64,000 nt of DNA from Bdellovibrionia bacterium (GCA_030432925.1 JAUILT010000001.1:13468-77467); one strand, 5' to 3'. Positions 3,045-63,258 are shown, numbered from the stretch's first letter. Notes: generated by a model not told the origin, from the sequence alone. Program-made: numbers and translations.

Positions 3045-3326
3045 CTATTTGTAGCGTTTGATCAAATGATATCCAAACTGAGTCTGGACAGGAGTAGAAA
3101 TCTCATCCACATTCAAAGAAAATGCCGCTTCTTCAAAACTGGGTACCATACGGCCTTTTCCAAATTCACCCAGGTCTCCACCCTGTTTGCCCGATGGGCA
3201 TTTTGAAAACTTCTGGGCTAAGTCTTCAAAACTAGTGCCTTCCTCCAGTTTTTTCAGTAAATCCTGGGCTTCATGTTCAGCGTCGACAAGAATGTGCTTA
3301 GCAGCAACGGAATCCATATAATTCAT
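3045..3326 (-). CDS. ppiC: parvulin-type peptidyl-prolyl cis-trans isomerase (PpiC-like)
   Basis: 'HILVDAEHEA...CPSGKQGGDLGEFGKGRMVPSFEEAAF...TQFGYHLIKR' matches the rotamase fold. I chose the internal ATG at 3326 (MNYMDS...), which gives the usual ~93 aa and removes the overlap with the divergent ABC gene. The track ORF extends to 3458. Confidence 0.8.
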   Translation of the reverse strand: MNYMDSVAAKHILVDAEHEAQDLLKKLEEGTSFEDLAQKFSKCPSGKQGGDLGEFGKGRMVPSFEEAAFSLNVDEISTPVQTQFGYHLIKRYK

Positions 3327-3442
3327 CTCCTGAGTCAGTTGAAAAACGCCTATTATAGCTACTCCAGTGAATTTGTCACGTTTTGCGCAAGCCGACATTT
3401 TACTTGGGTCCCACTTAACTTTCATGTAAATTCCCCACTGGG

Positions 3443-5212
3443 ATGACAAAAAATTCAACAGCCTTATTTCAACTGCTTTTTCATATGAAATCTCATCGTC
3501 TCCAGGTGTTTCTGGCTACTTTGTGTTCAGTGATTAACAAACTTTTCGATATTATGCCGGAAATCCTTATAGGTATGGCCATAGACGTTGTGGTTCGAGG
3601 TAAGGAGTCCTTTCTTTCTCAATGGGGAATTCATGAACCCTGGCAGCAAATTCTAGTACTTGGTGGACTGACATTTTTTATCTGGGTGGGGGAATCAATT
3701 TTTGAATACCTATATATGATTCTTTGGAGAGGCCTTGCTCAGATGGTCCAGCATGACCTTCGCACGGAGACCTACTCTCACCTTCAACAACTGGATCTTC
3801 AGTTTTTTGAGGATCAATCTTCTGGAAACTTGACCACTATTTTGAATGATGACATCAACCAATTAGAAAGATTCCTTGATGGAGGAGCGAATCAAATCAT
3901 TCAGACCATCACTGCTGTTATTGGAGTGGGTGCCGTTTTCTTTTATCTCTCACCATCCATTGCAGTAGTGGCTTACCTACCCATTCCAGCCATCGTCTTT
4001 GGAGCTTTTTATTTTCAGAAAAAAGCCACTCCTCTTTACACTGAAGTAAGAGATAAAGTTGGTACCCTTGGAACTCGCATCAGCAATAATATCTCAGGAA
4101 TACAAACTATAAAAAGTTTCACCCAGGAGGCTCGGGAGTCTGACACACTCAAAAAAGAAAGTGCTGATTACGTGGAAGCCAATAAAAAGGCCATTGCCGT
4201 GTCTTCGGCTTTTATACCCGTGATTCGTATGGGAATTCTTTCTGGGTACCTGGCTACTTTTTTATTAGGCGCCCACTATGTTCTTACAGGCACTTTGGAG
4301 ATTGGTGCCTATGGCGTTCTTGTGTTTCTCACCCAACGTCTATTATGGCCTCTGACTGGAATTGCCCAAACTGTGGACCTATATGAAAGAGCCATGGCCT
4401 CTACAAGACGAGTTCTGAACCTTCTTTATCAACCCATCCATATTGACGATGGAATGATGTCTGCTGAAACTCTGAAAGGAGAGATAACCTTTGAAAGCAT
4501 CCATTTTGCTTACTCCTCAGGCCCTGAAATTCTTAAAAATCTAAGCTTCCAGGTCCCTGCAAAGCAAACTATAGCCTTTGTAGGCTCCACCGGTTCCGGA
4601 AAAAGTACTCTCATTAAGCTTCTATTGAGGTTTTATGAGCCCCAATCCGGCAGAATTCACCTGGATGGTCGCCCACTGGAGGAATACCGGTTAAAAGACC
4701 TTCGAAAAAATATCGGACTGGTCTCTCAAGACGTGTTTTTATTCCACGGAACAGTTCGTGAAAACCTCCTCTACGGACAGCCAGAGGCTTCTGAGGCAGA
4801 CCTTTTGAATGCTGCCTCAAAAGCTGAAGCCATAGAATTTATTGAAAAGCTCCCCAAAGGTCTGGACACCATTATTGGAGAAAGAGGGCAAAAGCTCTCT
4901 GGAGGGCAAAGGCAACGCCTATCACTTGCCCGAGCCATCTTAAAGAACCCTCCCATTTTGGTACTTGATGAAGCTACAAGTGCTGTAGACAATGAAACGG
5001 AAGCTGCCATCCAGAGATCTCTTTCTAAAGTATCCAAAGACAGAACTGTCATTGCCATAGCCCACCGGCTCTCCACCATCGTCAATGCAGATATAATCTA
5101 TGTACTAGAAGATGGGTGTATCCAACAAAAGGGACGGCATCAAGATCTCATGAAAAACCCTGGTGTATATAAAAATCTCTGGAGTGTTCAAACGGGCTCT
5201 GCCAACATTTGA
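3443..5212 (+). CDS. ABC exporter, fused permease/ATPase (MsbA/MdlB-like)
   Basis: The N-terminal half has six hydrophobic segments. Walker A GSTGSGKST, signature LSGGQRQR and Walker B ILVLDEATS are present. Confidence 0.9.
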   Translation: MTKNSTALFQLLFHMKSHRLQVFLATLCSVINKLFDIMPEILIGMAIDVVVRGKESFLSQWGIHEPWQQILVLGGLTFFIWVGESIFEYLYMILWRGLAQMVQHDLRTETYSHLQQLDLQFFEDQSSGNLTTILNDDINQLERFLDGGANQIIQTITAVIGVGAVFFYLSPSIAVVAYLPIPAIVFGAFYFQKKATPLYTEVRDKVGTLGTRISNNISGIQTIKSFTQEARESDTLKKESADYVEANKKAIAVSSAFIPVIRMGILSGYLATFLLGAHYVLTGTLEIGAYGVLVFLTQRLLWPLTGIAQTVDLYERAMASTRRVLNLLYQPIHIDDGMMSAETLKGEITFESIHFAYSSGPEILKNLSFQVPAKQTIAFVGSTGSGKSTLIKLLLRFYEPQSGRIHLDGRPLEEYRLKDLRKNIGLVSQDVFLFHGTVRENLLYGQPEASEADLLNAASKAEAIEFIEKLPKGLDTIIGERGQKLSGGQRQRLSLARAILKNPPILVLDEATSAVDNETEAAIQRSLSKVSKDRTVIAIAHRLSTIVNADIIYVLEDGCIQQKGRHQDLMKNPGVYKNLWSVQTGSANI

Positions 5213-41546: not shown

Positions 41547-43184
41547 AGCCAAGAGTAAAGGTACCACTAACAAGACAGTCAATACAAAAAGAAAAAATAT
41601 GGGCGGTTTTTTTCTATCAAAATCTACAACCATTCCACACCCTCCTCCCTGATCAAAATCAAATTTCTGCTGAAAATAAGGTGAGTAATGAATCTGTATG
41701 CCTTGCAGATAAGACCCATTAGACTCATCAACATTCGTCAAGCTTGCTCTAAAACGAATGTATCGCCCCTGGGGCTCTGTTAGGCTATTAACTTCTACCC
41801 AGGATACAGGAACAAAATCATTACTTTCACCAGAAGAAATATCTAAAAAACTCGAAGCTCCCGAAGAAAGAGAACTTGTCAATGTGACCCCTGTCACACT
41901 GGGACGTGTGCTCATAAAATCAATGGGCTGAGAAGATAAAGTGAATGTTCCTGCTTGAAAGCGGCTATACCCGACATGAGCAAGCAGGGTATCTGGTTTT
42001 TCTGCATTTAAAGCATAAGGCGGAAGAGCTATCGAGTAACCACTCTTACCAGAAGCCCAAGTACGACCAGCACCTCCACGACCACCATTCACTCCAAAAA
42101 TATTGCTCCCCCCCACTCCGCCATAGGCTCGCACCGGACCAGAAATATAAACATCACCCAGTGCAAAAAGCTGAATAGACCCCCCACCACCACCGCCGCC
42201 AGCTCCTGAATTCTGAGTAGCGTTTCCACCACCATTTCCACCATTGGCATAAATACCTCCTGAGGGTGAAATTTTAATATCTCCAAAGGCATGAATAATA
42301 ACTCCTCCACCACCGGCACCTCCACCACCGCCAGAAAGATTCGAAGCCCCCCGATGATCACCTCCTCCACCACCAGCGCCTCCACCTAAAAATAAGAAAC
42401 TATGATCAGGTTCCACATCACCGCTTACGCCACCTGTTCCTGGCATCTGTGCGGTTCCAGCCTCTGCAACGCTGGCCGCAGTATTGGCTGTATAAGAGCC
42501 ACCGCCACCGCCGCCAGAACCAGTTCCACTAGAAGAGGCTGCTCTCCCAGGACTCGGCTTTCCGGGAACAACTGTCACGCCCAAAAACTCACCACTTTCA
42601 GCCTCCACAGTAATGGCTGAAACAACGTAGGATCCGGCGCCTCCAGCCCCACCTCCACAACGGCCTGTTCCTCCCAAGGCCTTTGTATCAAGATTTTGAA
42701 AGCTCTCTCCATCCTCTCCAGAGCAATCAATAGAACCATCAATAATGACATCTCCTTGAGAGTAAATGACCAGAGCGTTATCTCCCTCAGGCTGCAATGT
42801 CCAACCAGAATCCAAATAAAATCCTGTTACCTGAAGCTGTGAATACATCGACGTATCTAAACGAATAATGTTACCAGAAATATCACCATCTTTTGAGAAA
42901 TGAGAATATGTTGTAGAATCAAAAACCCCATGCTCCCCACTACCAATATCAAAATTTTTGGAAAGTGTAACATTGCCTGCCGTTACGTAGTTATTGATTT
43001 TTAAAGGGGGATGAAGCGCTTGCAGAGAAATATTCCACTCCAAAGTACCGGAATCTTTATTAAGTAAAAGTGAAAAATCCTCAGAAACCTGTGCTGCCTG
43101 AGCCAAGTTTGACACAATAAAAGAAGCCATCCAGCCACTCAAAATAAATACAAGGTTTGTTCTCCAATCAGGCAGATTCCACAT
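41511..43184 (-). CDS. glycine-rich repetitive secreted protein with C-terminal hydrophobic anchor
   Basis: It has a signal peptide. Gly runs include 'GGGAGGAGS', 'GSGGGGGGSY', 'LGGGAGGGGGD' and 'GAGGGGGGGS', interleaved with 'VIIHAFGDIKISPSGGIYANG'-type strands. The tail is 'GGGCGMVVDFDRKKPPIFFLFVLTVLLVVPLLLALKLK'. Confidence 0.65.
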   Translation of the reverse strand: MWNLPDWRTNLVFILSGWMASFIVSNLAQAAQVSEDFSLLLNKDSGTLEWNISLQALHPPLKINNYVTAGNVTLSKNFDIGSGEHGVFDSTTYSHFSKDGDISGNIIRLDTSMYSQLQVTGFYLDSGWTLQPEGDNALVIYSQGDVIIDGSIDCSGEDGESFQNLDTKALGGTGRCGGGAGGAGSYVVSAITVEAESGEFLGVTVVPGKPSPGRAASSSGTGSGGGGGGSYTANTAASVAEAGTAQMPGTGGVSGDVEPDHSFLFLGGGAGGGGGDHRGASNLSGGGGGAGGGGVIIHAFGDIKISPSGGIYANGGNGGGNATQNSGAGGGGGGGSIQLFALGDVYISGPVRAYGGVGGSNIFGVNGGRGGAGRTWASGKSGYSIALPPYALNAEKPDTLLAHVGYSRFQAGTFTLSSQPIDFMSTRPSVTGVTLTSSLSSGASSFLDISSGESNDFVPVSWVEVNSLTEPQGRYIRFRASLTNVDESNGSYLQGIQIHYSPYFQQKFDFDQGGGCGMVVDFDRKKPPIFFLFVLTVLLVVPLLLALKLKANAVHNL

Positions 43185-53421: not shown

Positions 53422-54930
53422 ATGAAACGTATACTTTTATTTGCTTTTTTTATATTTTCGGCGGCCTCACAGGCCGGTGAATACATTGTAAAGTTCAAAG
53501 ACCACACTCATATGGGACTGACTCAGGCCGCCCAAAGCCTAGGGCTTAAAGTCCAAGATACACACGAAAAAGGCCGATTGGTTCAGGTAAAGATTCCCGA
53601 TAATCAATTGCTTGAAAAATATAAACAAATCAAAAATAACAAAAATGTTGAGTACATTGTTGAGACATTTCCGCTGAAAGCTTTTCGCGCGCCCTACACT
53701 TTAGCAGAGCTACGTGAGCAATGGGCTCTTGCTAAAGTGAACGCAGAAAAAGCCTGGCAATTGGCCGGAAATAAAGGCCATAGAAACATCATTGTAGCTG
53801 TGATTGATACTGGTGTGGACTACAATCATGAGTCTCTAAGTCCCAATATGGTGCCTGGCTATGACTTCAATGCCAACGACGATGACCCTATGGATGAGAC
53901 CAGTTTTCAAAACCCTGGCCACGGCACTCACTGTGCCGGAGTTGTGGGGGCTACAGGTGAGGTCAATGGCGGAATTGTGGGGCTAAGTGCCAGAGTCTCC
54001 ATTATGCCCCTTAGGTTTCTCGGAGCCAATGGCAGTGGGGATTTAATGGCTGGCATTAAGGCTATCGACTACGCTATCGAACACGGTGCTAAAGTGATCT
54101 CTGCTAGCTGGGGAGCCGAAGTACAAAAGTCTCAAGCAGAGCCTCTTATTGAAGCTGTCAAACGAGCCAGTGATGCCGGCGTTATTTTTATTGCCGCTGC
54201 TGGAAATAGTAATAAAAATAATGACACCAGTGGCTTTTGGCCCGCCAACGCAAAATTTGAAAATACAATCACAGTTGCTGCCAGCAATTCTTCTGATGGC
54301 AAACCCAGTTGGTCCAACTACGGACGAGCGATTGTTGACTTGGCTGCCCCTGGTGAAAATATTATGAGCACCATCCCTGGTAACAAATATAAAAATCTCA
54401 GTGGTACTTCCATGGCAACCCCTTTAGTATCTAGTCTTGTTGCCCTACTCGCCTCTCAAAACCCTGAGATAACTGGTGCAGAAGCCCGCTCTCTTATTCA
54501 GGCCACTGGCGCTCAAGTAGATATCCAAACAGCATGTAACTGCCGCATTGATGCTGGTGCTGCTATGGAAGCCTTGAAGAATAACACCATGATTGTTGTT
54601 CCAGCGGCTGGAACTATTGCCCCCAACTCTACTTCCAAGTTTTCTGCCTTTCAAGGGACAGCCCCGTTGTCCTTTACCAGCTCGAATACAAATGTAGCTG
54701 ATATTGCTGCTGACGGAACTTTTACAGCTAAGACTAAAGGAGAAACTACAATTACTGTGACCGACGCTCATGGCAAAACAGCCACTTCTCTACCCATTCG
54801 CGTGGCTGAACTCAGTGATGGGGGTGGCGGTGGGGGAACCCCTCCCCCTGGTGACGGTCAATGTCCGTTTGACCCACAAACATGTGAGCTTATTTGTGGT
54901 ATAGCACCTGATATGCCTTGGTGCCAATAG
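53422..54930 (+). CDS. secreted subtilisin-family (S8) protease with Big_2-like domain and Cys-rich C-terminal tail
   Basis: Triad motifs VAVIDTGVDYNHE / HGTHCAGVVGA / GTSMATPLVSS. Big_2-like 'SSNTNVADIAADGTFTAKTKGETTITVTD'. The tail is 'GGGGGGTPPPGDGQCPFDPQTCELICGIAPDMPWCQ'. Confidence 0.9.
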   Translation: MKRILLFAFFIFSAASQAGEYIVKFKDHTHMGLTQAAQSLGLKVQDTHEKGRLVQVKIPDNQLLEKYKQIKNNKNVEYIVETFPLKAFRAPYTLAELREQWALAKVNAEKAWQLAGNKGHRNIIVAVIDTGVDYNHESLSPNMVPGYDFNANDDDPMDETSFQNPGHGTHCAGVVGATGEVNGGIVGLSARVSIMPLRFLGANGSGDLMAGIKAIDYAIEHGAKVISASWGAEVQKSQAEPLIEAVKRASDAGVIFIAAAGNSNKNNDTSGFWPANAKFENTITVAASNSSDGKPSWSNYGRAIVDLAAPGENIMSTIPGNKYKNLSGTSMATPLVSSLVALLASQNPEITGAEARSLIQATGAQVDIQTACNCRIDAGAAMEALKNNTMIVVPAAGTIAPNSTSKFSAFQGTAPLSFTSSNTNVADIAADGTFTAKTKGETTITVTDAHGKTATSLPIRVAELSDGGGGGGTPPPGDGQCPFDPQTCELICGIAPDMPWCQ

Positions 54931-55038: not shown

Positions 55039-55452
55039 CTATTCAGCAAATATAAGAGCTCTGTAATTGAGCGAAGATGCTCTACGCCCTACCCTACTAG
55101 TTCTCGCTTTTACATCAATGTGCTCAATACAGGCCTGACGGTTCAATAAAATATCCACTCCTCGAGACGTCAGGATTTTTCCACTAAACTCAACTTTTTG
55201 AGGTTGTCCGGCAGCAAAATAAATATATACGGTCTCAAGACGGAGCCTTTTCTTCTTTTTAAACACTCCGAGTCTTTTTATTTGAACTTTTGAAAGGGCT
55301 CCATAAGAACACCCCACAGGCACCCTCTCGATTGTAGAACTTCTACCAAATTTTCCTGTTTCTGCAGAAAAACTTTCAGCGAACCCCGTTGAACAAAACC
55401 AAAACCCCAAAACAACAAAAGATAACAATACAGGTTTTCTTAGTGGAAACAT
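55039..55452 (-). CDS. hypothetical secreted protein
   Basis: RBS GGAAGGGGGG; signal peptide 'LLSFVVLGFWFCSTGFA'. Confidence 0.55.
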   Translation of the reverse strand: MFPLRKPVLLSFVVLGFWFCSTGFAESFSAETGKFGRSSTIERVPVGCSYGALSKVQIKRLGVFKKKKRLRLETVYIYFAAGQPQKVEFSGKILTSRGVDILLNRQACIEHIDVKARTSRVGRRASSLNYRALIFAE

Positions 55453-55533
55453 TTTACCCCCCTTCCTCTTGTCTTCACTAATAATATTTATGATATGTGG
55501 TCAAACAAATTCATAAACGCAAGTGAGTTGAAA

Positions 55534-55704
55534 ATGACTCCCAAGGGGCAAATTGTCATCCCTGAAGAGATCGTCAGCACCGCCCCTTTAGAGCCAAAAA
55601 TAGAGAAACAGAACCAAAATTCCAAGAAAATGTGCACTCGACTGAAGTTCTTGGAGGGCTTCACCATCATTATTCGTTTGTTGGATGAATTTTTGCTATG
55701 GACA
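55534..55704 (+). mobile_element. collapsed remnant of an AbrB-antitoxin/PIN/rve-transposase module (antitoxin head joined directly to transposase tail)
   Basis: 55534-55572 aligns with 60816-60854 (the antitoxin start). 55574-55704 aligns without gaps with 61952-62082 (the last ~37 codons of the rve gene, its stop, and 16 nt beyond). The final ~55 nt are identical. Confidence 0.7.
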
Positions 55705-56406
55705 GCTTTAAAAGGTGCTTTAAGAGCTAAGGGAGTGTCTTATAAAGATCTAGCCGAATCTTTGTCACTGAGCGAAGCCAGCATAAAAAGAATTTTTTCC
55801 ACAGGCTCATTTAGCCTAGATCGCTTTTTAGAGATTTGTGAAGTATCGGGGATCACACCTCAAAGCCTATTTAGCTTAATGAGTGAAAAATCGGCAAAGG
55901 TGTATGAATATAGCGAGATACAAGAGCAATTTTTTGTTGAAAACCCGAACCATTTATCCTTTTTTGATCTACTCCTGAAGGGTAATTCACCTAAATCAAT
56001 AGCCAAGAAGCACGAGCTAACAATCACTCAAGTTCAAAAGTTTCTACGAGATCTCGAAAAAATCGACCTTGTAGATTGGTTAGCCGGAGATCGAGCAAAA
56101 TTAAAGGTATCTAGGAATGTTCGCTGGCGAAAAGGCGGCCCACTGAAGCAAAAACTCTTGCCGAAGGCAAGAGAAGAGTTTTTAAGAAGCTCTTTTGAAG
56201 ATATACACGCGGAGAGTAAATTTATGCTAATAGACCTGTCCGAAAGAAATCAGAAGAAATTGAAAGTTCGCTTTCATGAACTCATCGAAGACCTTTCAAA
56301 AGACTCTAGTATCGATCAATTGGCAAAATCGAAACGAGAAACAATTGGTATATTTTTGGCTTATCGACCCTGGAACTTTTCGTTACTTAAGACTCCAAAA
56401 ATGTGA
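55630..56406 (+). CDS. XRE-type HTH transcriptional regulator (two-domain)
   Basis: 'LKGALRAKGVSYKDLAESLSLSEASIKRIFSTGS' is an HTH_3-like helix-turn-helix. The frame is open back to 55495 through the transposase-tail remnant, so the true start (ATG 55630 or a TTG near 55676-55681) is uncertain. Confidence 0.6.
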   Translation: MCTRLKFLEGFTIIIRLLDEFLLWTALKGALRAKGVSYKDLAESLSLSEASIKRIFSTGSFSLDRFLEICEVSGITPQSLFSLMSEKSAKVYEYSEIQEQFFVENPNHLSFFDLLLKGNSPKSIAKKHELTITQVQKFLRDLEKIDLVDWLAGDRAKLKVSRNVRWRKGGPLKQKLLPKAREEFLRSSFEDIHAESKFMLIDLSERNQKKLKVRFHELIEDLSKDSSIDQLAKSKRETIGIFLAYRPWNFSLLKTPKM

Positions 56407-56632
56407 CTGGCAAAGAAACTTTCGATACTTGAGATATCGTGACTTAGCGATGTCTTAGCCATAAGAAAATATTGACTTAAGTATAAATTGCACTGAGACC
56501 ATGTCTTGTTAACAGAACATAGGCGCCATGGTGTACCAAGGTTGAGAGTGCGTATTTTCAAAAAGAAAAATTACTGTAGAATCATCAACTTAAGAGTTCT
56601 GGTTTTTTTCACTCAAGACAGACTGTTAACAA

Positions 56633-56752
56633 ATGTTAATGGATAATTTCAAGATTGCTTTTGTCTCATTGCTCGGTGGTTTTGCTCTTGCTAATTTGCA
56701 TCCAGTAATCGCGATTCAGTTAAACTATAAAAGTCAACGAATGGGGGAATGA
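56633..56752 (+). CDS. possible 39-aa hydrophobic leader peptide ORF
   Basis: It encodes MLMDNFKIAFVSLLGGFALANLHPVIAIQLNYKSQRMGE. Its stop overlaps the ATG of the next gene (ATGA). There is no clear RBS, and it is below the ORF-track size cutoff. Confidence 0.2.
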   Translation: MLMDNFKIAFVSLLGGFALANLHPVIAIQLNYKSQRMGE

Positions 56753-57663
56753 TGAAATCTATTATTTTACTGCTTACAATAAGTCTAGCGAATGCAAATT
56801 TTGCTTTCGCAGATACTAACTACTACCAAGACCACTTGGATCTACAAAGGGCATGGGGAATCACTACTGGTTCGGAAGACGTTCATATAGCAATTTTGGA
56901 TACTGGAATGAACTACAGAATCGAAGAGTTCAATGGCAAGATTGCAAAACATCCGATAAATGGAAGTTACGGGTTTGATGCTGTCAACGGGACCTCGGAT
57001 CCATTTGACACGTTTGGGCTAGGAACTCAGTTGGCCAGCCTGATTGTCAGTGATGAGCTGGGTGTCGCTCCAGGGGCAAAGATCGTCCCAGTTCGAGTCT
57101 TTGACGACCGAGTTGGCGGTAGTCAAATTACTATCGCGAGAGGTATCGAATATGCGATTTCAAGAAACGTGGACATCATCCTTCTAGCGATAGGTATCGG
57201 ATCACCTGGAGCAACTATTTGTAACAGTCTGCAAAAGGCTGCAAACGCTAATATTTTTGTTGTCCTGTCCGCAGGAAATCAAGCCGAAGAGATCACAGAT
57301 GGTCATTTTCCAGCCAATTGTGGTGTAGAAAGTTTGATTACCATAGCTTCCTCAGACCAGGAAAAGAGCTTGGCAAACTACAGCTCGTATGGATTTAAAA
57401 ATGTGCATACAGCAGCCCCAGGTACTATGGTGAACGGCATTGATCATACTGGAGCGATGGTTGAGGGAACCGGAGGATCTTTTTCTGCAGCTCTTGCTGC
57501 GGGTACGGCGGCTCTTGTTTTAAGCCATAACCCCTCTTATTCGCCCCTTCAGCTTAAAGAAGCTCTTATTAGAGGCTCAAATACTAGTGTAGCATTGAGA
57601 GGGCTTGTCTCCTCAAATGGTATTCTAAGTGCATACAAAGCCTTAACGGTAGATCTTGATTGA
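56749..57663 (+). CDS. secreted subtilase (S8) homologue lacking the catalytic histidine
   Basis: It has a signal peptide. The Asp motif 'HIAILDTGMN', Asn motif 'LSAGNQA' and Ser region 'GTGGSFSAALAAG' are present. The His motif position reads 'DTFGLGTQLAS' where 'HGTH' is expected. Confidence 0.8.
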   Translation: MMKSIILLLTISLANANFAFADTNYYQDHLDLQRAWGITTGSEDVHIAILDTGMNYRIEEFNGKIAKHPINGSYGFDAVNGTSDPFDTFGLGTQLASLIVSDELGVAPGAKIVPVRVFDDRVGGSQITIARGIEYAISRNVDIILLAIGIGSPGATICNSLQKAANANIFVVLSAGNQAEEITDGHFPANCGVESLITIASSDQEKSLANYSSYGFKNVHTAAPGTMVNGIDHTGAMVEGTGGSFSAALAAGTAALVLSHNPSYSPLQLKEALIRGSNTSVALRGLVSSNGILSAYKALTVDLD

Positions 57664-58544
57664 TGACTTCATCTTCTGCAACCAGAGAGAAGAATGAGCA
57701 ACTTTCGGTATTCGACTATGTCGATTACCGAAAGTTTTTATGTGAGTATTACAAAGTCCAAAAGAGTCGGCGATCAACATTTTCTTTTAGAAACTTTGCA
57801 CAAAAAGCAAAACTATCTTCAGACAACTATCTGAAGCTCGTGATGGATGGAAAGAGGAGAATAACTGATAAAAATCTCCCGGCATTTATTAGAGGCTTAG
57901 GACTAAAGAGCGATGAAGCTAAATACTTTAGACTCATCGTTTTGTTCAACGAGGCTAAAGATCCCGATGAAAAAAGAGATCTACTGTCAAAAGTTTCTGT
58001 ATTGCGAAGTCGGAAAAAGCGATCATCTCAAACGATGAGCCCTAGCCAAGAATCAGTTTTGAAACACTGGGCTACTTGGGTAATTCGTGAAATGGTCCTG
58101 TTGAAAGATTTTAAATCTGATTCCAATTGGATATCCAAAAAGATCAATCGAGAGATCACCCCTAAAAAAGCGGAAGAAAGCTTAGATCTTCTCTTAGAAT
58201 CAGGACTGATTGAATGCATAGATCGTGGCAGATTTTCTCCTACAGCTCGCAAGCTTGCGACACAGGATGAGGTTGTTAGCTGCTTGATCCGTGACCTTCA
58301 TGCTCAATTTATTGAGCGAGGTCTTAAGTCTTTGTTTGAAGATGATCTTCCACATAGAGAGTTTGCTGGACTGACGATTGCACTGTCTGATGAACAAATT
58401 CCAAAATTTAAGGAAAAGATCAAGCAGTTTAGAAAAGATCTCAACAATGAGTTCTCTGACAGTAGCCTACCACTAACAAAAGTACATCACTTTGAAATGA
58501 TGTTCTTTCCTGTAACCGATGGAGAAATTGAATGCGAGAATTGA
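57663..58544 (+). CDS. TIGR02147/DUF4423-like putative DNA-binding protein
   Basis: 'DYRKFLCEYYKVQKSRRSTFSFRNFAQKAKLSSDNYLKLVMDGKRRIT...YFRLIVLFNEAKD' matches my recollection of the TIGR02147 N-terminal pattern. The ATG overlaps the upstream stop (TGATG). Confidence 0.6.
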   Translation: MTSSSATREKNEQLSVFDYVDYRKFLCEYYKVQKSRRSTFSFRNFAQKAKLSSDNYLKLVMDGKRRITDKNLPAFIRGLGLKSDEAKYFRLIVLFNEAKDPDEKRDLLSKVSVLRSRKKRSSQTMSPSQESVLKHWATWVIREMVLLKDFKSDSNWISKKINREITPKKAEESLDLLLESGLIECIDRGRFSPTARKLATQDEVVSCLIRDLHAQFIERGLKSLFEDDLPHREFAGLTIALSDEQIPKFKEKIKQFRKDLNNEFSDSSLPLTKVHHFEMMFFPVTDGEIECEN

Positions 58545-59017
58545 GAATAAAATCAATGATGATTTTTGTTGGCGTTTTAATATGGAATAATCCGGGATGG
58601 GCTGGAGGTGAACTAGGTAATGCATACGTTAAATATGAAAATTTCATCGGCAACTATTCTATTGCATACCCAAAAAATTGGAACTACTTGGACCTCAATA
58701 CATCTGTCAGTTTCGTGAAGTCCTCAGATGTCGAACCAATTATGACATCTTCGTTGTCAGTTGTCGAAAAAAGATTTCCCAACATCACTTCAACCGGAAA
58801 GCTGCTTCGGATGATTCAACACGAACACCCTAATGAGTCTTGGACTCCAGTTAAGCTATCAGGTTGTGAAGGCTATAGGAGCAATAAAGGTTCGGCGGGT
58901 ACTCTCTACTTATTAAGAGAGCCAGAAAATGTAATGACTTTGCGTTTTCAATCCAATGCTGAGCCAACGGATTCTGACAAAATAGAGAAAATGATACAAA
59001 CACTTGAAATTGACTAA
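58532..59017 (+). CDS. hypothetical secreted protein
   Basis: RBS GGAGAA 5 nt upstream. It overlaps the previous gene by 13 nt. Signal peptide 'MMIFVGVLIWNNPGWA'. Confidence 0.55.
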   Translation: MRELRIKSMMIFVGVLIWNNPGWAGGELGNAYVKYENFIGNYSIAYPKNWNYLDLNTSVSFVKSSDVEPIMTSSLSVVEKRFPNITSTGKLLRMIQHEHPNESWTPVKLSGCEGYRSNKGSAGTLYLLREPENVMTLRFQSNAEPTDSDKIEKMIQTLEID

Positions 59018-59037
59018 ACTCTCAGGCCTGCGGGTTT

Positions 59038-59061
59038 TGCCCCAGCAATAAAGCTGGGGCA
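59038..59061. other. perfect 9-bp hairpin between convergent genes
   Basis: tgccccagc aataa gctggggca. No flanking T-run follows the stem on either strand. Confidence 0.5.
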
Positions 59062-59113
59062 TCTAATCTGGAGGATAGTAATGAATATCATCTGGTCTGG
59101 ATCGAGAGACATT

Positions 59114-59335
59114 TTAATCAAGGTCAACCAAAAGATTTAAGACTTCTACTGATTCAGTTACCTCATTCATGACTCTTCTGTGATAAATATCAATGGGATG
59201 CTCACTTTTGAGCATTTCATCCTGAGCTTTTTTTAAATCAATGGCTTTCAGGTAGTAAATAAGAAACTCTCTTCCGACACTGCTTTGCATTTTCGGTACT
59301 TTTCTGACGAATTTTCGACAGTGAAGATTTTCCAT
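59114..59335 (-). CDS. hypothetical small protein
   Basis: The first 'M' in the track (59356) is a TTG. The first ATG is at 59335. There is no motif and no clear RBS. Confidence 0.3.
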   Translation of the reverse strand: MENLHCRKFVRKVPKMQSSVGREFLIYYLKAIDLKKAQDEMLKSEHPIDIYHRRVMNEVTESVEVLNLLVDLD

Positions 59336-59401
59336 ATGGGTGAACCTAAAATTCAATATCGCTCCTACTCAATTGACACGAAGCTACAAGTGGTTCTCAA
59401 C

Positions 59402-59767
59402 TCAAAAAAGTTCCCAAACTTTGCCCGTATAAGAGTCATATATCTGAGACTCACTCAGTATCTCAAAAGTCATTGTATCCGGCATATCGCCTGGTGAAAC
59501 TGACTTGAGTATAATTTCACTACCATTCTCAATTGAATACTCCGCTCGATTAGCTATATCCGTCAGCATAACCATGGCAAATCCATCAACCTCAAAGGTT
59601 ACAGCTCGAAAACAATTGAACCACTCCCCAGTCTCTTTCTTAAAATCTTCACACTCTTTTTCCGTCTCAAAATCACCTACAAGGTGCCTATAGGATGTTT
59701 TTGAAGGAAAAAAGTCTCCAAACGCTGAACAAGTCAAAAAAATCAAAGCTAAACATATTTTTCTCAT
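59402..59767 (-). CDS. hypothetical secreted protein
   Basis: Strong RBS GGAGG 6 nt upstream; signal peptide MRKICLALIFLTCSAFG. Confidence 0.6.
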   Translation of the reverse strand: MRKICLALIFLTCSAFGDFFPSKTSYRHLVGDFETEKECEDFKKETGEWFNCFRAVTFEVDGFAMVMLTDIANRAEYSIENGSEIILKSVSPGDMPDTMTFEILSESQIYDSYTGKVWELF

Positions 59768-59797
59768 AATTGACCTCCATACTTCTGATGAAAATTT

Positions 59798-60202
59798 TTA
59801 ACAAAACCCACATGGCTCTTTGCACCCTCCATCTCCAAATACAGAAACAGACCATTGCCCTGACTGAAACTTTACTCTAGCCGTCTTAATGACATTTCCA
59901 GAGGGGTTTTTGAAATTCAACTGAACCTCATAAGGATTCTCATTCAAAGGATTGTCAACGGTCAAGGAGACTTTGACCTCAGTTGGCGAACACAGGTCAT
60001 AGCAGAGCCTATCCATGACAAACGGTCCATTTTTATCATAGGTAATTCGCAGACTCACATCACTCCGTTCAATTTCAGCAGCATAAATGGGCCGGTCCCC
60101 AATACGACAGTCGAAAGAATCAAAGCGTAAGAGCTGGGCGTCTTTACGTTCCCACAGACACCTTTCTGGATCTTGAGATAAAAAACCAGGGAGAAAAAAC
60201 AT
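59798..60202 (-). CDS. hypothetical Cys-rich protein
   Basis: ATG at 60202 (the track starts at a TTG at 60205). It has 8 Cys, including the C-terminal 'GDGGCKEPCGFC'. No RBS is seen. Confidence 0.45.
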   Translation of the reverse strand: MFFLPGFLSQDPERCLWERKDAQLLRFDSFDCRIGDRPIYAAEIERSDVSLRITYDKNGPFVMDRLCYDLCSPTEVKVSLTVDNPLNENPYEVQLNFKNPSGNVIKTARVKFQSGQWSVSVFGDGGCKEPCGFC

Positions 60203-60730
60203 CAATTACAATCCGAGTTCGCAGAGCCCCATCTGAAGACATGGTATTGCCGTATTACCTTTCAGGTGTCACTTTCCGAGTCTATAATTATTCTTTGGAG
60301 AAAGTGCTTCTGAAAAGGGATTTTGACTTCACGGCTGACTGCACCTCTTCACTAAGCATCATGCCTGGTCAAGCGACAGTTTTGACGGAAACCGAAGTCG
60401 AGGTCCCAGCAAATCATTCTTATTTTGTTGAGATCTCATCCCAAGGCAGCAATTAAAGTTTCTCAAGTGTTTCTTTGCTTGTACTAGATCTATCGAAATC
60501 CCTCTATTTTTGAGAAGACCAGCGATTTCGCAGCAATTGGGACTCCTCGCCCCTCCGCAGAGGCGGACCACATTTTCATCCGAATAGCTCTCGATCAAAA
60601 GAACGGACAGATTTTTGATGCCTAGAAGGTCAATGACCTCTACTCATCAGGTCACCTAACCTCGGAAAGACCAGTAATTCCTTAACAATAGTCCCCCTGA
60701 CTCTAATCAAAAAAAGAAATAAAAATCATC

Positions 60731-60774
60731 TTTACTTTGGCATCGAAATCTTGCTATAATCTTACCAGTAAGAT
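60731..60774 (+). promoter_or_regulatory. candidate sigma70 promoter plus palindromic operator of the AbrB/PIN module
   Basis: TTTACT (60731-60736), an 18-nt spacer, then TATAAT (60755-60760). The palindrome ATCTTAC-CA-GTAAGAT (60759-60774) lies between the -10 element and the RBS AGGAG (60777-60781). Confidence 0.4.
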
Positions 60775-60788
60775 TTAGGAGAAAGAAT

Positions 60789-61055
60789 ATGTCTTCAGCT
60801 GTAGCTACCACTAAAATGTCGTCCAAGGGACAAATTGTGATCCCTGAGGAAATCCGAGAACGCCTTGGTCTCGATGCGGGAACTCAGTTCGTGGTCCTCG
60901 GAGATGGAGACTCCGTATTACTAAAAGTGATCACTCCCCCTTCCAAAAAAGAGTTTCGAGAGATGCTCAAGAAAACTCGGGCCTCCGCAAAAAAGGAAGG
61001 CCTTAAAAAAGAAGACCTGGCAAAAGCCATCCGCTCGGCCCGATCTAAAAAATGA
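60789..61055 (+). CDS. AbrB/SpoVT-family antitoxin
   Basis: 'KMSSKGQIVIPEEIRERLGLDAGTQFVV' is a SpoVT-AbrB fold. Its stop overlaps the toxin ATG (ATGA). Confidence 0.8.
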   Translation: MSSAVATTKMSSKGQIVIPEEIRERLGLDAGTQFVVLGDGDSVLLKVITPPSKKEFREMLKKTRASAKKEGLKKEDLAKAIRSARSKK

Positions 61056-61345
61056 AAGTTGTCTTAGATACAAATGTGCTGATGTCAGGCATTTTCTGGT
61101 CTGGCACTCCTTGTAAGATCCTAGAACATTGGGCTGATGGAAAATTCCACATCCTTTTGAGCATAGATATCATTTCTGAATATCAGAGAGTTTTCGAAAT
61201 TCTCGGCAAAAAGCACCCGGACTCCTCTCAATCAGGAAGTTCTATAATAAGTGCTATTATCGCAGGCTCATCAATTGTCGAAATTAAACTTAAAAATCCA
61301 CAACAGATCTCCAGTGACCCCGATGATGACAAATTCACCCACTGA
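61052..61345 (+). pseudogene. PIN-domain toxin (TIGR00305-like), C-terminally truncated at the junction with the rve gene
   Basis: 'VVLDTNVLMSGIFW...ISEYQRVF...SSDPDDDKF', after which the frame ends 'TH*'. The last ~30-40 residues usual for this family, including the fourth acidic residue, are missing. Confidence 0.7.
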
Positions 61346-62066
61346 ACAGCTTGTACTTCGGCTAAAAAGTGAAAACAGACTCTGGGGAGTCCCGCGTATT
61401 CACGGAGAACTGGTCAAACTCGGCTTTAAGATCAGCAGGACAACCATCAGAAATATTCTTAAAAGAAATGGCCTCTATCCCAAAGACATCGGGCAAAATT
61501 ACCAAACCTGGAGTCAATTTTTACGGCAGCACAAAAAGGTTTGGGCCATCGACTTTTTTACCGTGGAAACGGTATTCCTAAAAACAGTTTATGTCTTCGC
61601 AGCCATTGATATTCATAGCCGACAGCTCGTTGAGTTAAGATGCTGCACGACTCCTCTGCAAAGCTGGACTCGAAATGCTCTTTTGCAAAGATTTGGATTC
61701 GATGATGCCCCAGATCTCATCATCAGAGACAGCGATTCCAACTACGGCACCTTAGACAGCATAGGCAATGTCAAAGTAATCACCTCCCCACCAGGATGCC
61801 CTTGGTTTAATACTTATGTTGAACGCTTCATTGGCTCGGCGCAACGGGAGTGTACTGATCACTTCCTTTATTTTTCATCAGAGCAAATACAAAAAACGCT
61901 CAATGAGTACAAAAAGTATTACAACCACCACCGACCCCACCAATCATTGGCTCAGCACTGCCCCTTTGAGGCTGGAAACAGAGAAACAAAAACGAAATTC
62001 CAAGAAAATGTCCACTCAACTGAAGTCCTCGGAGGGCTTCACCATCATTATTCGTTTGTTGGATGA
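61323..62066 (+). CDS. rve (DDE integrase-core) transposase, apparently N-terminally truncated
   Basis: 'ENRLWGVPRIHGELVKLGFKISRTTIRNILKRNG', 'DFFTVETVFLKTVYVFAAIDIHSR', 'IIRDSDSNYG', 'PWFNTYVERFIGSAQRECTDH', and a tail 'LGGLHHHYSFVG'. The first ATG (61323) is built from the Asp codons of the PIN remnant in another frame. Confidence 0.75.
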   Translation: MMTNSPTEQLVLRLKSENRLWGVPRIHGELVKLGFKISRTTIRNILKRNGLYPKDIGQNYQTWSQFLRQHKKVWAIDFFTVETVFLKTVYVFAAIDIHSRQLVELRCCTTPLQSWTRNALLQRFGFDDAPDLIIRDSDSNYGTLDSIGNVKVITSPPGCPWFNTYVERFIGSAQRECTDHFLYFSSEQIQKTLNEYKKYYNHHRPHQSLAQHCPFEAGNRETKTKFQENVHSTEVLGGLHHHYSFVG

Positions 62067-62082
62067 ATTTTTGCTATGGACA
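61337..62082 (+). mobile_element. IS/transposon remnant (right end defined, left end not defined)
   Basis: The right boundary is placed where the two copies stop matching ('...tttttgctatggaca' at 62082 and 55704). I found no matching inverted repeat on the left. Confidence 0.5.
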
Positions 62083-62122
62083 ACATAAAAAACAGGATAC
62101 TTGGCTCAAATCAGTTGAGAGC

Positions 62123-62371
62123 TCAAGAACCCGTTTTCTTTTGGAAGACTTTCTTTTCAAGCTTTTCTAAGCGTTCCTCAACAGACTCACGCTCAAGCAT
62201 AACCTTTCTCAAAAACCAGTTTAAATAGGTCTGATAACCCATTCCCTCGGCCTCGCCTTGCTCCTCAAGCCACTCTAAAATATCGACATCCAAGCGAAAA
62301 GTTTTTGAAACCTTGATCTCTTTAGCCGTTTTACCTTTCTTTCCTTTTGAAAAATCATAGTTCTTTTTCAT
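62123..62371 (-). CDS. brnA: BrnA antitoxin
   Basis: 'DFSKGKKGK...KVSKTFRLDVDILEWLEEQG...GYQTYLNWFLRKVM'. ATGA overlap with brnT. Confidence 0.8.
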   Translation of the reverse strand: MKKNYDFSKGKKGKTAKEIKVSKTFRLDVDILEWLEEQGEAEGMGYQTYLNWFLRKVMLERESVEERLEKLEKKVFQKKTGS

Positions 62372-62658
62372 AGCTTTAACCTCTCAGTATAGGTCTGTTG
62401 TTCCATCTTATCTGCTTTTCTGGCAGAGATAATTCGTATGGTCTCGGCCTCGGCCTTCTCTGCAAAAACGACCACAAGGATTCTTAATTTTTTAGAGAAA
62501 CCAAGTCTTACCCAACGATCATCGTCATCTTTAGAATGATCCTCGTCATGGATTTCGATAGAGTTGGGGTCAAGCCAAATTGAGGCCGCCTCGGTGAAGC
62601 GAACTCCGTGTTTTTTCAGATTACTCGCAGCTTTCTTGTCATTCCACTCAAAATCCAT
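62368..62658 (-). CDS. brnT: BrnT (DUF497) ribonuclease toxin
   Basis: 'MDFEWNDKKAASNLKKHGVRFTEAASIWLDPNSIEIHDEDHS...IRIISARKADKMEQQTY'. Confidence 0.85.
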   Translation of the reverse strand: MDFEWNDKKAASNLKKHGVRFTEAASIWLDPNSIEIHDEDHSKDDDDRWVRLGFSKKLRILVVVFAEKAEAETIRIISARKADKMEQQTYTERLKL

Positions 62659-62902: not shown

Positions 62903-62929
62903 CAACTGTTTGTTACGTATGTGTTGCGG
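62903..62929 (+). repeat. 27-nt direct repeat, copy 1 (caactgtttgttacgtatgtgttgcgg)
   Basis: Matches 63232-63258 with 3 mismatches by hand alignment. Confidence 0.85.
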
Positions 62930-63231: not shown

Positions 63232-63258
63232 CAACGATTTGTTACGTATGTGTTACGG
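63232..63258 (+). repeat. 27-nt direct repeat, copy 2 (caacgatttgttacgtatgtgttacgg)
   Basis: See copy 1. It contains two GTTACG words. Confidence 0.85.

Follow-up and report, generated by a model that had tools for sequence, protein, structure and literature searches.

What are the two similar segments that lie in the same orientation within 64,000 nucleotides (nt) of DNA from a Bdellovibrionia bacterium (GCA_030432925.1, JAUILT010000001.1:13468-77467), each opening in antitoxin sequence and closing in transposase sequence, and does a toxin–antitoxin (TA) pair move with the transposase? We call this whole stretch the window; its source is a single metagenome-assembled contig. The left segment, copy A, occupies 55531–55704, and the right one, copy B, has its genes and terminal repeat at 60789–62082, behind a leader. 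We consider it probable that both are decayed, independently diverged copies of one ~1.85 kilobase (kb) antitoxin-toxin-transposase unit. This upholds the central proposal of a first-pass annotation of the same DNA, namely that the window holds two diverged copies of an antitoxin-to-transposase unit: their tails align without gaps, their heads match, and an intact unit exists on another contig.

The tails carry most of the similarity. Positions 55574–55704 and 61952–62082, anchored on the common ...TTTTTGCTATGGACA, agree at 116 of 131 nt without a gap, much as the annotation had counted (equal lengths, ~15 differences), and the transposase-frame peptides that it had read from them come out the same on translation. 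All 15 mismatches lie in the first 79 nt and none in the final 52 nt (55653–55704 = 62031–62082); the identical end was correctly seen, with its length and that of the variable part now set at 52 and 79 nt in place of ~55 and ~75. Past the final ACA, similarity between the copies ends abruptly. By repeat finder and BLASTN, the tail pair spans 140 nt at 87% identity (E 1e-44). The heads, 55531–55572 and 60813–60854, agree at 35 of 42 nt (83%; BLASTN E 5e-6 and TBLASTN E 7e-4, within the window) and encode KMTPKGQIVIPEEI in copy A and KMSSKGQIVIPEEI in copy B. A self-BLASTN, the check that the annotation had proposed, thus finds significant similarity beyond the terminal block in both tail and head. 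The copies do bracket an interval, of 5,084 nt (55705–60788) and not the ~6 kb first stated, the repeat spacing from A to B being 6,378 nt. With up to 3 mismatches allowed, neither strand of the window holds a third copy of the 52-nt block; the 22-nt end recurs in the window only at the two known sites, and no left-end copy was found there.

An intact form of the unit lies on Logan contig L087 (run SRR33375173), which comes from a related strain and encodes the closest homologue of the copy B antitoxin (97% identical). L087 and copy B are 89% identical at the nucleotide level and align in two blocks, window 60694–61344 with L087 1524–2174 and window 61341–62061 with L087 2618–3338. Between these blocks L087 has 443 nt more, so that copy B corresponds to the L087 unit minus 443 nt. 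The order in L087 is AbrB/MazE antitoxin, PIN_3 toxin, 7-nt spacer and IS481-like rve transposase. The toxin is a complete 135-amino-acid (aa) PIN_3 protein that covers the Pfam model in full (1–115 of 115), and toward its C terminus it stays collinear with a stand-alone paralogue. Its stop codon is separated from the transposase start by the spacer alone (TAA AACTCCT ATG), and the transposase then runs for 347 codons without a stop, its N terminus aligning to the N terminus of the family, until the contig ends just before the stop codon.

Copy B retains most of this unit, and the earlier description of it as an AbrB antitoxin, a truncated PIN toxin, a truncated rve transposase and 16 nt past the stop agrees with both Pfam and the coordinates. 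Its leader (60731–60775, plus strand, as are all features of the two copies) carries a promoter-like TTTACT-18-TATAAT (60731–60760) overlapped by the 18-nt palindrome AATCTTACCAGTAAGATT (60758–60775), and is kept in L087 at 86% identity over 88 nt. The palindrome, with the half-site form AATCTTAC-N2-GTAAGATT, is likely the antitoxin operator. The antitoxin gene (60789–61055) is intact and encodes an 88-aa AbrB/MazE-type protein (PF04014, 33.2 bits against a cut-off of 24.7; TIGR01439). The PIN_3 toxin gene (61052–61345) follows in the same orientation with a 4-nt overlap (ATGA), and both genes match type II TA family models. The toxin scores 41.9 bits with PF13470 (cut-off 27) and is cut at residue 97 of 135, covering Pfam PIN_3 model positions 1–97 of 115; a complete toxin with a full PIN domain, as expected of a type II TA pair, is thus missing from the window and present in L087.

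The cut is the junction of the 443-nt deletion (61341–61344), which took out the 3′ end of the toxin gene together with the 7-nt spacer and 107 codons from the start of the transposase gene. Its breakpoints share an ACTG microhomology, which is typical of illegitimate deletion. What remains of the rve-type (IS481-like) transposase gene (61345–62066; Pfam rve_3 61251/61323–62066) is annotated from an ATG at 61323 and, by alignment to relatives, lacks ~107–112 N-terminal residues, including the putative DNA-binding part. From its stop codon 16 nt lead to the repeat end. The 52-nt terminal block (62031–62082) comprises the last 12 transposase codons (11 residues and the stop) and the right inverted repeat, with its tip at 62082.

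Copy A keeps only the two extremities of the unit. Its head (55531–55572) is a remnant of the AbrB/MazE antitoxin gene with the codons K-M-T-P-K-G-Q-I-V-I-P-E-E-I and an ATG at 55534. Here antitoxin codons 9–22 run directly into the final 37 codons of the transposase gene, with the right repeat at the end. The annotation was right that an antitoxin head is fused to the last ~37 transposase codons, and mistaken in taking that head for the first ~13 codons of the gene: in copy B the corresponding Met is the tenth codon, not the start. The tail (55573–55704) reaches the transposase stop, TGA, at 55686–55688 and continues for 16 nt to the right-repeat tip. Copy A is missing 1,097 nt relative to copy B, as expected from the ~1.1 kb internal deletion first proposed, and 1,544 nt relative to L087. 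We also considered copy A as a miniature element with the head as its left repeat; we rejected this, as there is no inverted repeat within 55531–55704.

The substitutions that separate the copies retain the imprint of their original reading frames. In the tail, the 15 nucleotide changes between A and B produce 5 amino acid changes in the transposase frame, against a mean of 10.8 in simulations of random substitution (P about 1e-4); in the regulator-fusion frame described below they produce 10 residue changes (P 0.44). In the head, 7 nucleotide changes produce 2 amino acid changes (P 0.007). Because the differences are biased toward synonymous changes in the original frames, both copies appear to stem from once-functional modules, and we infer that A and B diverged while encoding a working antitoxin and transposase. 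The same values sustain the earlier suggestion that the copies evolved separately from functional modules and are not a recent duplication. Between copy B and L087, the transposase genes differ at 80 positions, the toxin genes at 35 and the antitoxin genes at 17; of these, 61, 25 and 13, respectively, are third codon positions, a pattern that points to purifying selection on all three genes for most of the ~11% divergence. Given that selection, the 443-nt deletion in copy B appears to be comparatively recent.

Which transposase family does the unit belong to, and where does it end? The window fragment scores best with the curated NCBIfam model for IS481 (NF033577, 113 bits) and second best with that for IS3 (NF033516, 91 bits), both below their cut-offs of 224 and 160, and is therefore best described as an IS481-like rve (DDE) enzyme. 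A 66% identical relative, P0002, likewise reaches 113 bits with the IS481 model, under the cut-off of 224, and the pair scores 91–102 bits with IS3. The two-open-reading-frame (ORF) frameshift layout of IS3 was not found; the gene is one continuous ORF, of 335–362 aa in the aligned relatives (P0002 is a 340-aa partial sequence) and 347 codons in L087. These relatives all have a C-terminal motif, LGGLHHHY.

The ends are clearest in more distant relatives. A profile scan of metagenomes provided 80 transposase loci of 33–37% identity, which we used for element anatomy. Those with clear inverted repeats are elements of 1,092–1,114 base pairs (bp) with a single transposase ORF and repeats that read, from the tip, TGTGTGTACCGAAAAC or TGTCC...GAAAAT; the left tip lies ~60 nt 5′ of the ATG, and the right tip 15–18 nt past the stop, mostly exactly 16. 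Size, single ORF and TGT-starting repeats are thus of IS481 type in the relatives; the window has the right end only (...TGGACA). No target-site duplication is evident at the repeat tips of 19 relatives, and classical family members carry no passenger genes.

In copy A the right inverted repeat occupies 55683–55704, reads TGTCCATAGCAAAAATTCATCC from the tip and is identical to 62061–62082. From the tip it matches the left repeat of L005, a locus with a 48% identical transposase, at 17 of 22 positions, and it also resembles a site in L003, a 66% relative; each of these sites lies ~105 nt upstream of the transposase ATG. Given its position 16 nt past the stop, as in relatives, and its likeness to the L005 and L003 repeats, the point at which both copies stop matching is a genuine right inverted-repeat tip. 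The annotation had placed a right end there, and the TGT/ACA tip and 16-nt distance of the relatives agree.

The 52-nt terminal block is the same in A, B and L087, the last of these over the 31 nt of the block that its contig reaches, whereas the adjacent 79 nt are only 68–81% alike among the three. Identity of the block in all three against this divergence argues less for recent gene conversion between the two copies than for constraint on the end, plausibly as a transposase binding site plus a conserved C terminus.

As we reconstruct it, the intact unit would comprise a leader with promoter and palindrome, the AbrB/MazE and PIN_3 genes, the 7-nt spacer, the rve transposase and a right repeat 16 nt past its stop. 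Its transposase was probably transcribed from the autoregulated TA promoter. Each right junction in the window would be the product of a transposase-mediated event, and later deletions would have killed both copies, so that neither should be able to transpose now.

The alternative that deserves most attention holds that the TA pair never moves with the transposase. The copy A head would then come from a separate resident AbrB-PIN locus, downstream of which an insertion sequence landed before a deletion joined the two, and the layout shared by L087 and copy B would be a one-off that followed loss of the left end. We judge this unlikely, and a good part of the evidence nonetheless weighs on its side and against a shared unit. 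The head match is one such point. The family N-terminal motif KGQ[IV]VIPEE[IV] runs through 120 antitoxin homologues, and KGQIVIPEEI itself occurs in 33 of the 120 closest, so that the head match alone is no proof of close paralogy; much of the similarity (36 of 43 nt to L087) is expected from the conserved motif, and third positions match at only 6 of 10. Left of 55531, copy A has no homology to the unit, whether copy B leader or L087, which requires at least one further rearrangement there. Resident AbrB-PIN loci are common and often clustered, and the closest TA homologues with readable neighborhoods (67–73% identical) are stand-alone loci, often in TA islands; a 72% identical paralogue without a transposase even occurs in the sequencing run of the window strain. 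Conversely, phmmer (E up to 1) finds an AbrB or PIN gene in 0 of 85 transposase-family loci.

The intact unit itself has limits of the same kind. L087 is its sole example, with the right end and right flank beyond the contig, and neither context look-ups nor collection scans found a second intact copy. L087 and copy B also share an extra 21-nt match (90%) left of the leader, beyond ~164 nt of sequence found only in the window, and may therefore be one ancestral insertion and not independent ones. No left inverted repeat was found between toxin and transposase in L087, on the 5′ side of the antitoxin in either L087 or copy B, or left of copy A. Alignments of the right repeat with the sequence to the left of copy B, of the L087 unit and of copy A, and with the 3′-terminal part of the L087 toxin gene, all scored within shuffle noise. 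The 105-nt leaders of L003 and L005 gave nothing significant against the region upstream of the antitoxin, the best being a short A-rich match (P about 0.02–0.04). Candidates picked by eye, TGACATGAAAATCATC at L087 1549, TGCCCATA at L087 1459 and window 60560–60581, were not accepted.

Three further observations favor a shared unit and linkage. Without it, the same gene order and orientation must arise twice within 6 kb, since copy A has the order and orientation of copy B between different flanks. A transposase without a left end should decay, yet the third-position bias is strong in all three genes over ~11% divergence, which implies sustained selection on the transposase in that position. 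Finally, a chance deletion would not easily leave just 7 nt, and no left repeat, between an intact toxin stop and a transposase start typical of the family. The annotation had raised the possibility that the TA pair travels with the element. The spacing in L087 and the lack of a left repeat within it speak for that idea; against it stand the failure to find a left repeat upstream of the antitoxin and the absence of the linkage from the 85 loci and the readable TA homologues. That the L087-type unit is a mobile IS481-like element, with the AbrB/PIN_3 pair as the first genes of the transposase operon, TA autoregulation at the palindrome gating the transposase and the pair acting as the element's own addiction module, is hence a reading we put forward only tentatively, as a serious possibility somewhat short of probable.

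Several observations adjoin these loci. The 72% identical AbrB-PIN paralogue lies on contig L091 (Logan ERR3428547, the run with the window strain) and has a complete 137-aa toxin, with no transposase sequence in the 28 nt downstream. In more distant genomes (L088–L090 and L094), the surroundings of the homologous AbrB-PIN pair are conserved, with a DUF4160/DUF2442 pair upstream, other insertion sequences nearby and a 460–471-aa protein directly downstream (DUF6973 in L094). The ~164 nt present in the window and not in L087, 60544–60707, are flanked by aligning blocks and contain short palindromes, CCGCAGAGGCGG and AGGTCAATGACCT (60627–60639), together with ACATTTTCATCCGAATAG, a segment similar to the internal portion of the left repeat of L005; a small repeat that was inserted, or an old fragment of an element end, could account for them.

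Across 185,579 species genomes scanned with the transposase, only a 29% match emerged; the 22-nt end had no match in JGI metagenomes; and matches in a plasmid collection reached at most 35.6% identity and were labelled only "integrase core domain-containing protein". The contig of L005 carries a DUF4423 gene at 3242–4072 (26% identity), and its presence there and near copy A suggests that the element lineage inhabits related, probably Bdellovibrionota-like hosts.

What did the right end of copy A do to the gene beside it? An ORF, 55495–56406, runs through the entire tail without a stop, as the annotation had reported of the regulator frame, and the ATG of the antitoxin head lies in its frame. 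From that ATG it would encode a 290-aa chimera (55534–56406) in which 13 aa come from the antitoxin head, 44 aa from the element tail, read in a frame other than that of the transposase, and the remainder from regulator residues 8–240; in the NCBI entry for the 81.6-kb source contig, the annotated protein P0121 (290 aa, 100% identical) starts at the same codon. The native part (55705–56406) is an XRE/HTH_26-type regulator (Pfam HTH_26/DUF6471) without its first 7 codons and promoter. Homologues P0122–P0124 (66–70% identity, 240–242 aa) begin MKEQL(V/L), and DNA homology to two of them, on contigs L092 and L093, begins at 55708/55709, 4–5 nt past the repeat tip at 55704; the conserved upstream promoter region of those contigs and their divergent neighbor gene are absent from the window. 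Since homology resumes right after the tip and the native promoter region is missing, the element end has replaced the first 7 codons and the promoter. The right tip of copy A directly adjoins codon 8 of the regulator, and the chimeric ORF is the result.

The only in-frame start codons of the regulator now lie in remnant element sequence. The earlier proposal that the remnant supplies the 5′ end and promoter of this gene is thus borne out for the 5′ end, given the MKEQLV starts of homologues and the resumption of homology at the tip, and not for the promoter: a consensus scan of 55380–55760 found no sigma-70-like site. The alternative tail frame is also open in copy B (61816–62088), so that openness is a property of the tail and no sign of selection.

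Could these junctions be artefacts of assembly? A mis-join across the 52-nt exact repeat might have made the right junctions and the regulator fusion, and with one metagenome-assembled contig as source, an assembler could in principle have swapped the right flanks, a further point to be held against our preferred history. Independent Logan contigs, moreover, span only 59945–61468, with the same break coordinates in two runs. The 15 differences in the first 79 nt, however, make each head-tail and gene-tail junction copy-specific and leave only the right flanks swappable, and the element tip stands against regulator codon 8 either way. We regard a mis-join as very improbable. The two contigs concerned, L001 and L002, are from independent SRA assemblies that break at 59945/6 and 61467/8, and the L087 contig stops after exactly 31 nt of the shared 52-nt block. 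This pattern is what branching of a k=31 graph would produce if the samples hold further copies of the element, and suggests that they do.

The interval between the copies raises another possibility, that they are the arms of a composite transposon moving the intervening 5.1 kb as cargo. The copies are indeed direct repeats bracketing 55705–60788, and the interval holds lineage-typical, accessory-looking genes: the regulator, an S8 subtilase, a TIGR02147/DUF4423 protein and small unannotated ORFs. Both copies, however, lack a left end and a complete transposase (copy A has 37 codons, copy B is without the first 107). The interval starts with a resident regulator gene, cut by the element end, that in relatives has its own promoter and another upstream neighbor; the base composition of the interval, in guanine plus cytosine (G+C), is like that of its surroundings, and no flanking target duplication can be defined. 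A composite transposon is, on this evidence, scarcely credible, and the earlier description of the interval as "accessory cargo" does not stand, since it opens with a decapitated resident regulator and its flanks contain no left ends and no working transposase.

How does the two-copy unit that we favor compare with known systems? In Tn3-family transposons, TA pairs are embedded in the transposition module, for example as "A> T> tnpA>" with PIN_3 in Tn5044 and TnXc5 (Lima-Mendez et al. 2020, PMC7157771). The resemblance lies in a type II pair with a PIN_3 toxin directly upstream of a co-oriented transposase, and by analogy TA autoregulation could govern the transposase here too. In contrast to those transposons, the unit has a 347-aa rve/IS481-like enzyme in place of a TnpA of ~1,000 aa, an AbrB/MazE antitoxin in place of RHH_6, and neither a resolvase nor a res site. 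Tn3-family TA pairs are also enclosed by both inverted repeats, whereas here the right repeat alone is defined. Transposase type and the lack of a resolvase exclude the unit from the Tn3 family.

The IS481 family is closer in its scores, its single rve transposase and its terminal repeats starting with TGT; the unit departs from it in a transposase score of 113 bits against the cut-off of 224, and its relatives in having no obvious target-site duplication. IS481-family members with two passenger genes are known, among them ISArsp12/ISPfr21; what these carry, in place of a TA pair, is an ArsR regulator and a permease (PMC6305408). In the literature searched, we found no IS481-like element carrying a TA pair.

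Considered as a TA locus, the unit resembles VapBC-like type II loci in its above-cut-off Pfam and TIGRFAM matches, its 4-nt ATGA overlap, its palindrome overlapping a promoter and its many stand-alone homologues (antitoxin 87 aa, toxin 133–138 aa). It differs in that the window toxin is cut at residue 97, leaving an orphan antitoxin, and in that L087 has the transposase as a third gene after 7 nt. A last comparison concerns copy A. Insertion-sequence ends can truncate or fuse genes and leave solo-end "IS scars". Copy A is like these in placing an element tip inside the 5′ end of a resident gene and in leaving a short terminal fragment, and is unlike them in that the predicted fusion ORF begins in a third gene, the antitoxin head, and crosses the element tail in a non-transposase frame.

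Most of what the two copies show is ordinary element decay, with two dated deletions, an antitoxin left orphaned and a regulator gene that has lost its 5′ end. For annotation it follows that the 247-aa "transposase" record is a fragment and the 290-aa "regulator" record a chimera. The moderately interesting lead is the TA-led transposase operon. Should that tentative reading be true, the unit would be a small-insertion-sequence counterpart of the TA-bearing Tn3-family transposons, the window would contain two dead copies of it, and one of these may have rewired a regulator. If the TA pair lies inside the element, the TA control of transposition that has been proposed for Tn3-family elements would also apply to simple rve-type insertion sequences, and the unit would offer a compact system in which to test such control.

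The surroundings of the two copies add minor observations. Around copy A lie two S8 subtilase genes and a gene of the TIGR02147 (DUF4423) paralogous family (53422–54930, 56749–57663 and 57660–58544); just inside the start of the TIGR02147/DUF4423 gene, 57700–57736 form a 17-nt inverted repeat with 3-nt spacing and 94% complementarity (AACTTTCGGTATTCGAC / GTCGATTACCGAAAGTT). The window holds no tRNA genes that would mark an island. Its G+C content, about 0.40–0.44 elsewhere, peaks at 0.489 in 42001–43000, where the GC skew is also at its most negative. On the minus strand, converging on copy B, a BrnT toxin (62368–62658, Pfam 87 bits) and BrnA antitoxin (62123–62371) form a second TA pair (62123–62658) that stops 40 nt short of the tip of copy B's right repeat and, with the AbrB-PIN pair, makes this a TA-rich region. 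Downstream of the BrnTA genes, a 27-nt direct repeat, CAAC..TTTGTTACGTATGTGTT.CGG, occurs at 62903–62929 and, 329 nt away, at 63232–63258, the two being 89% identical.

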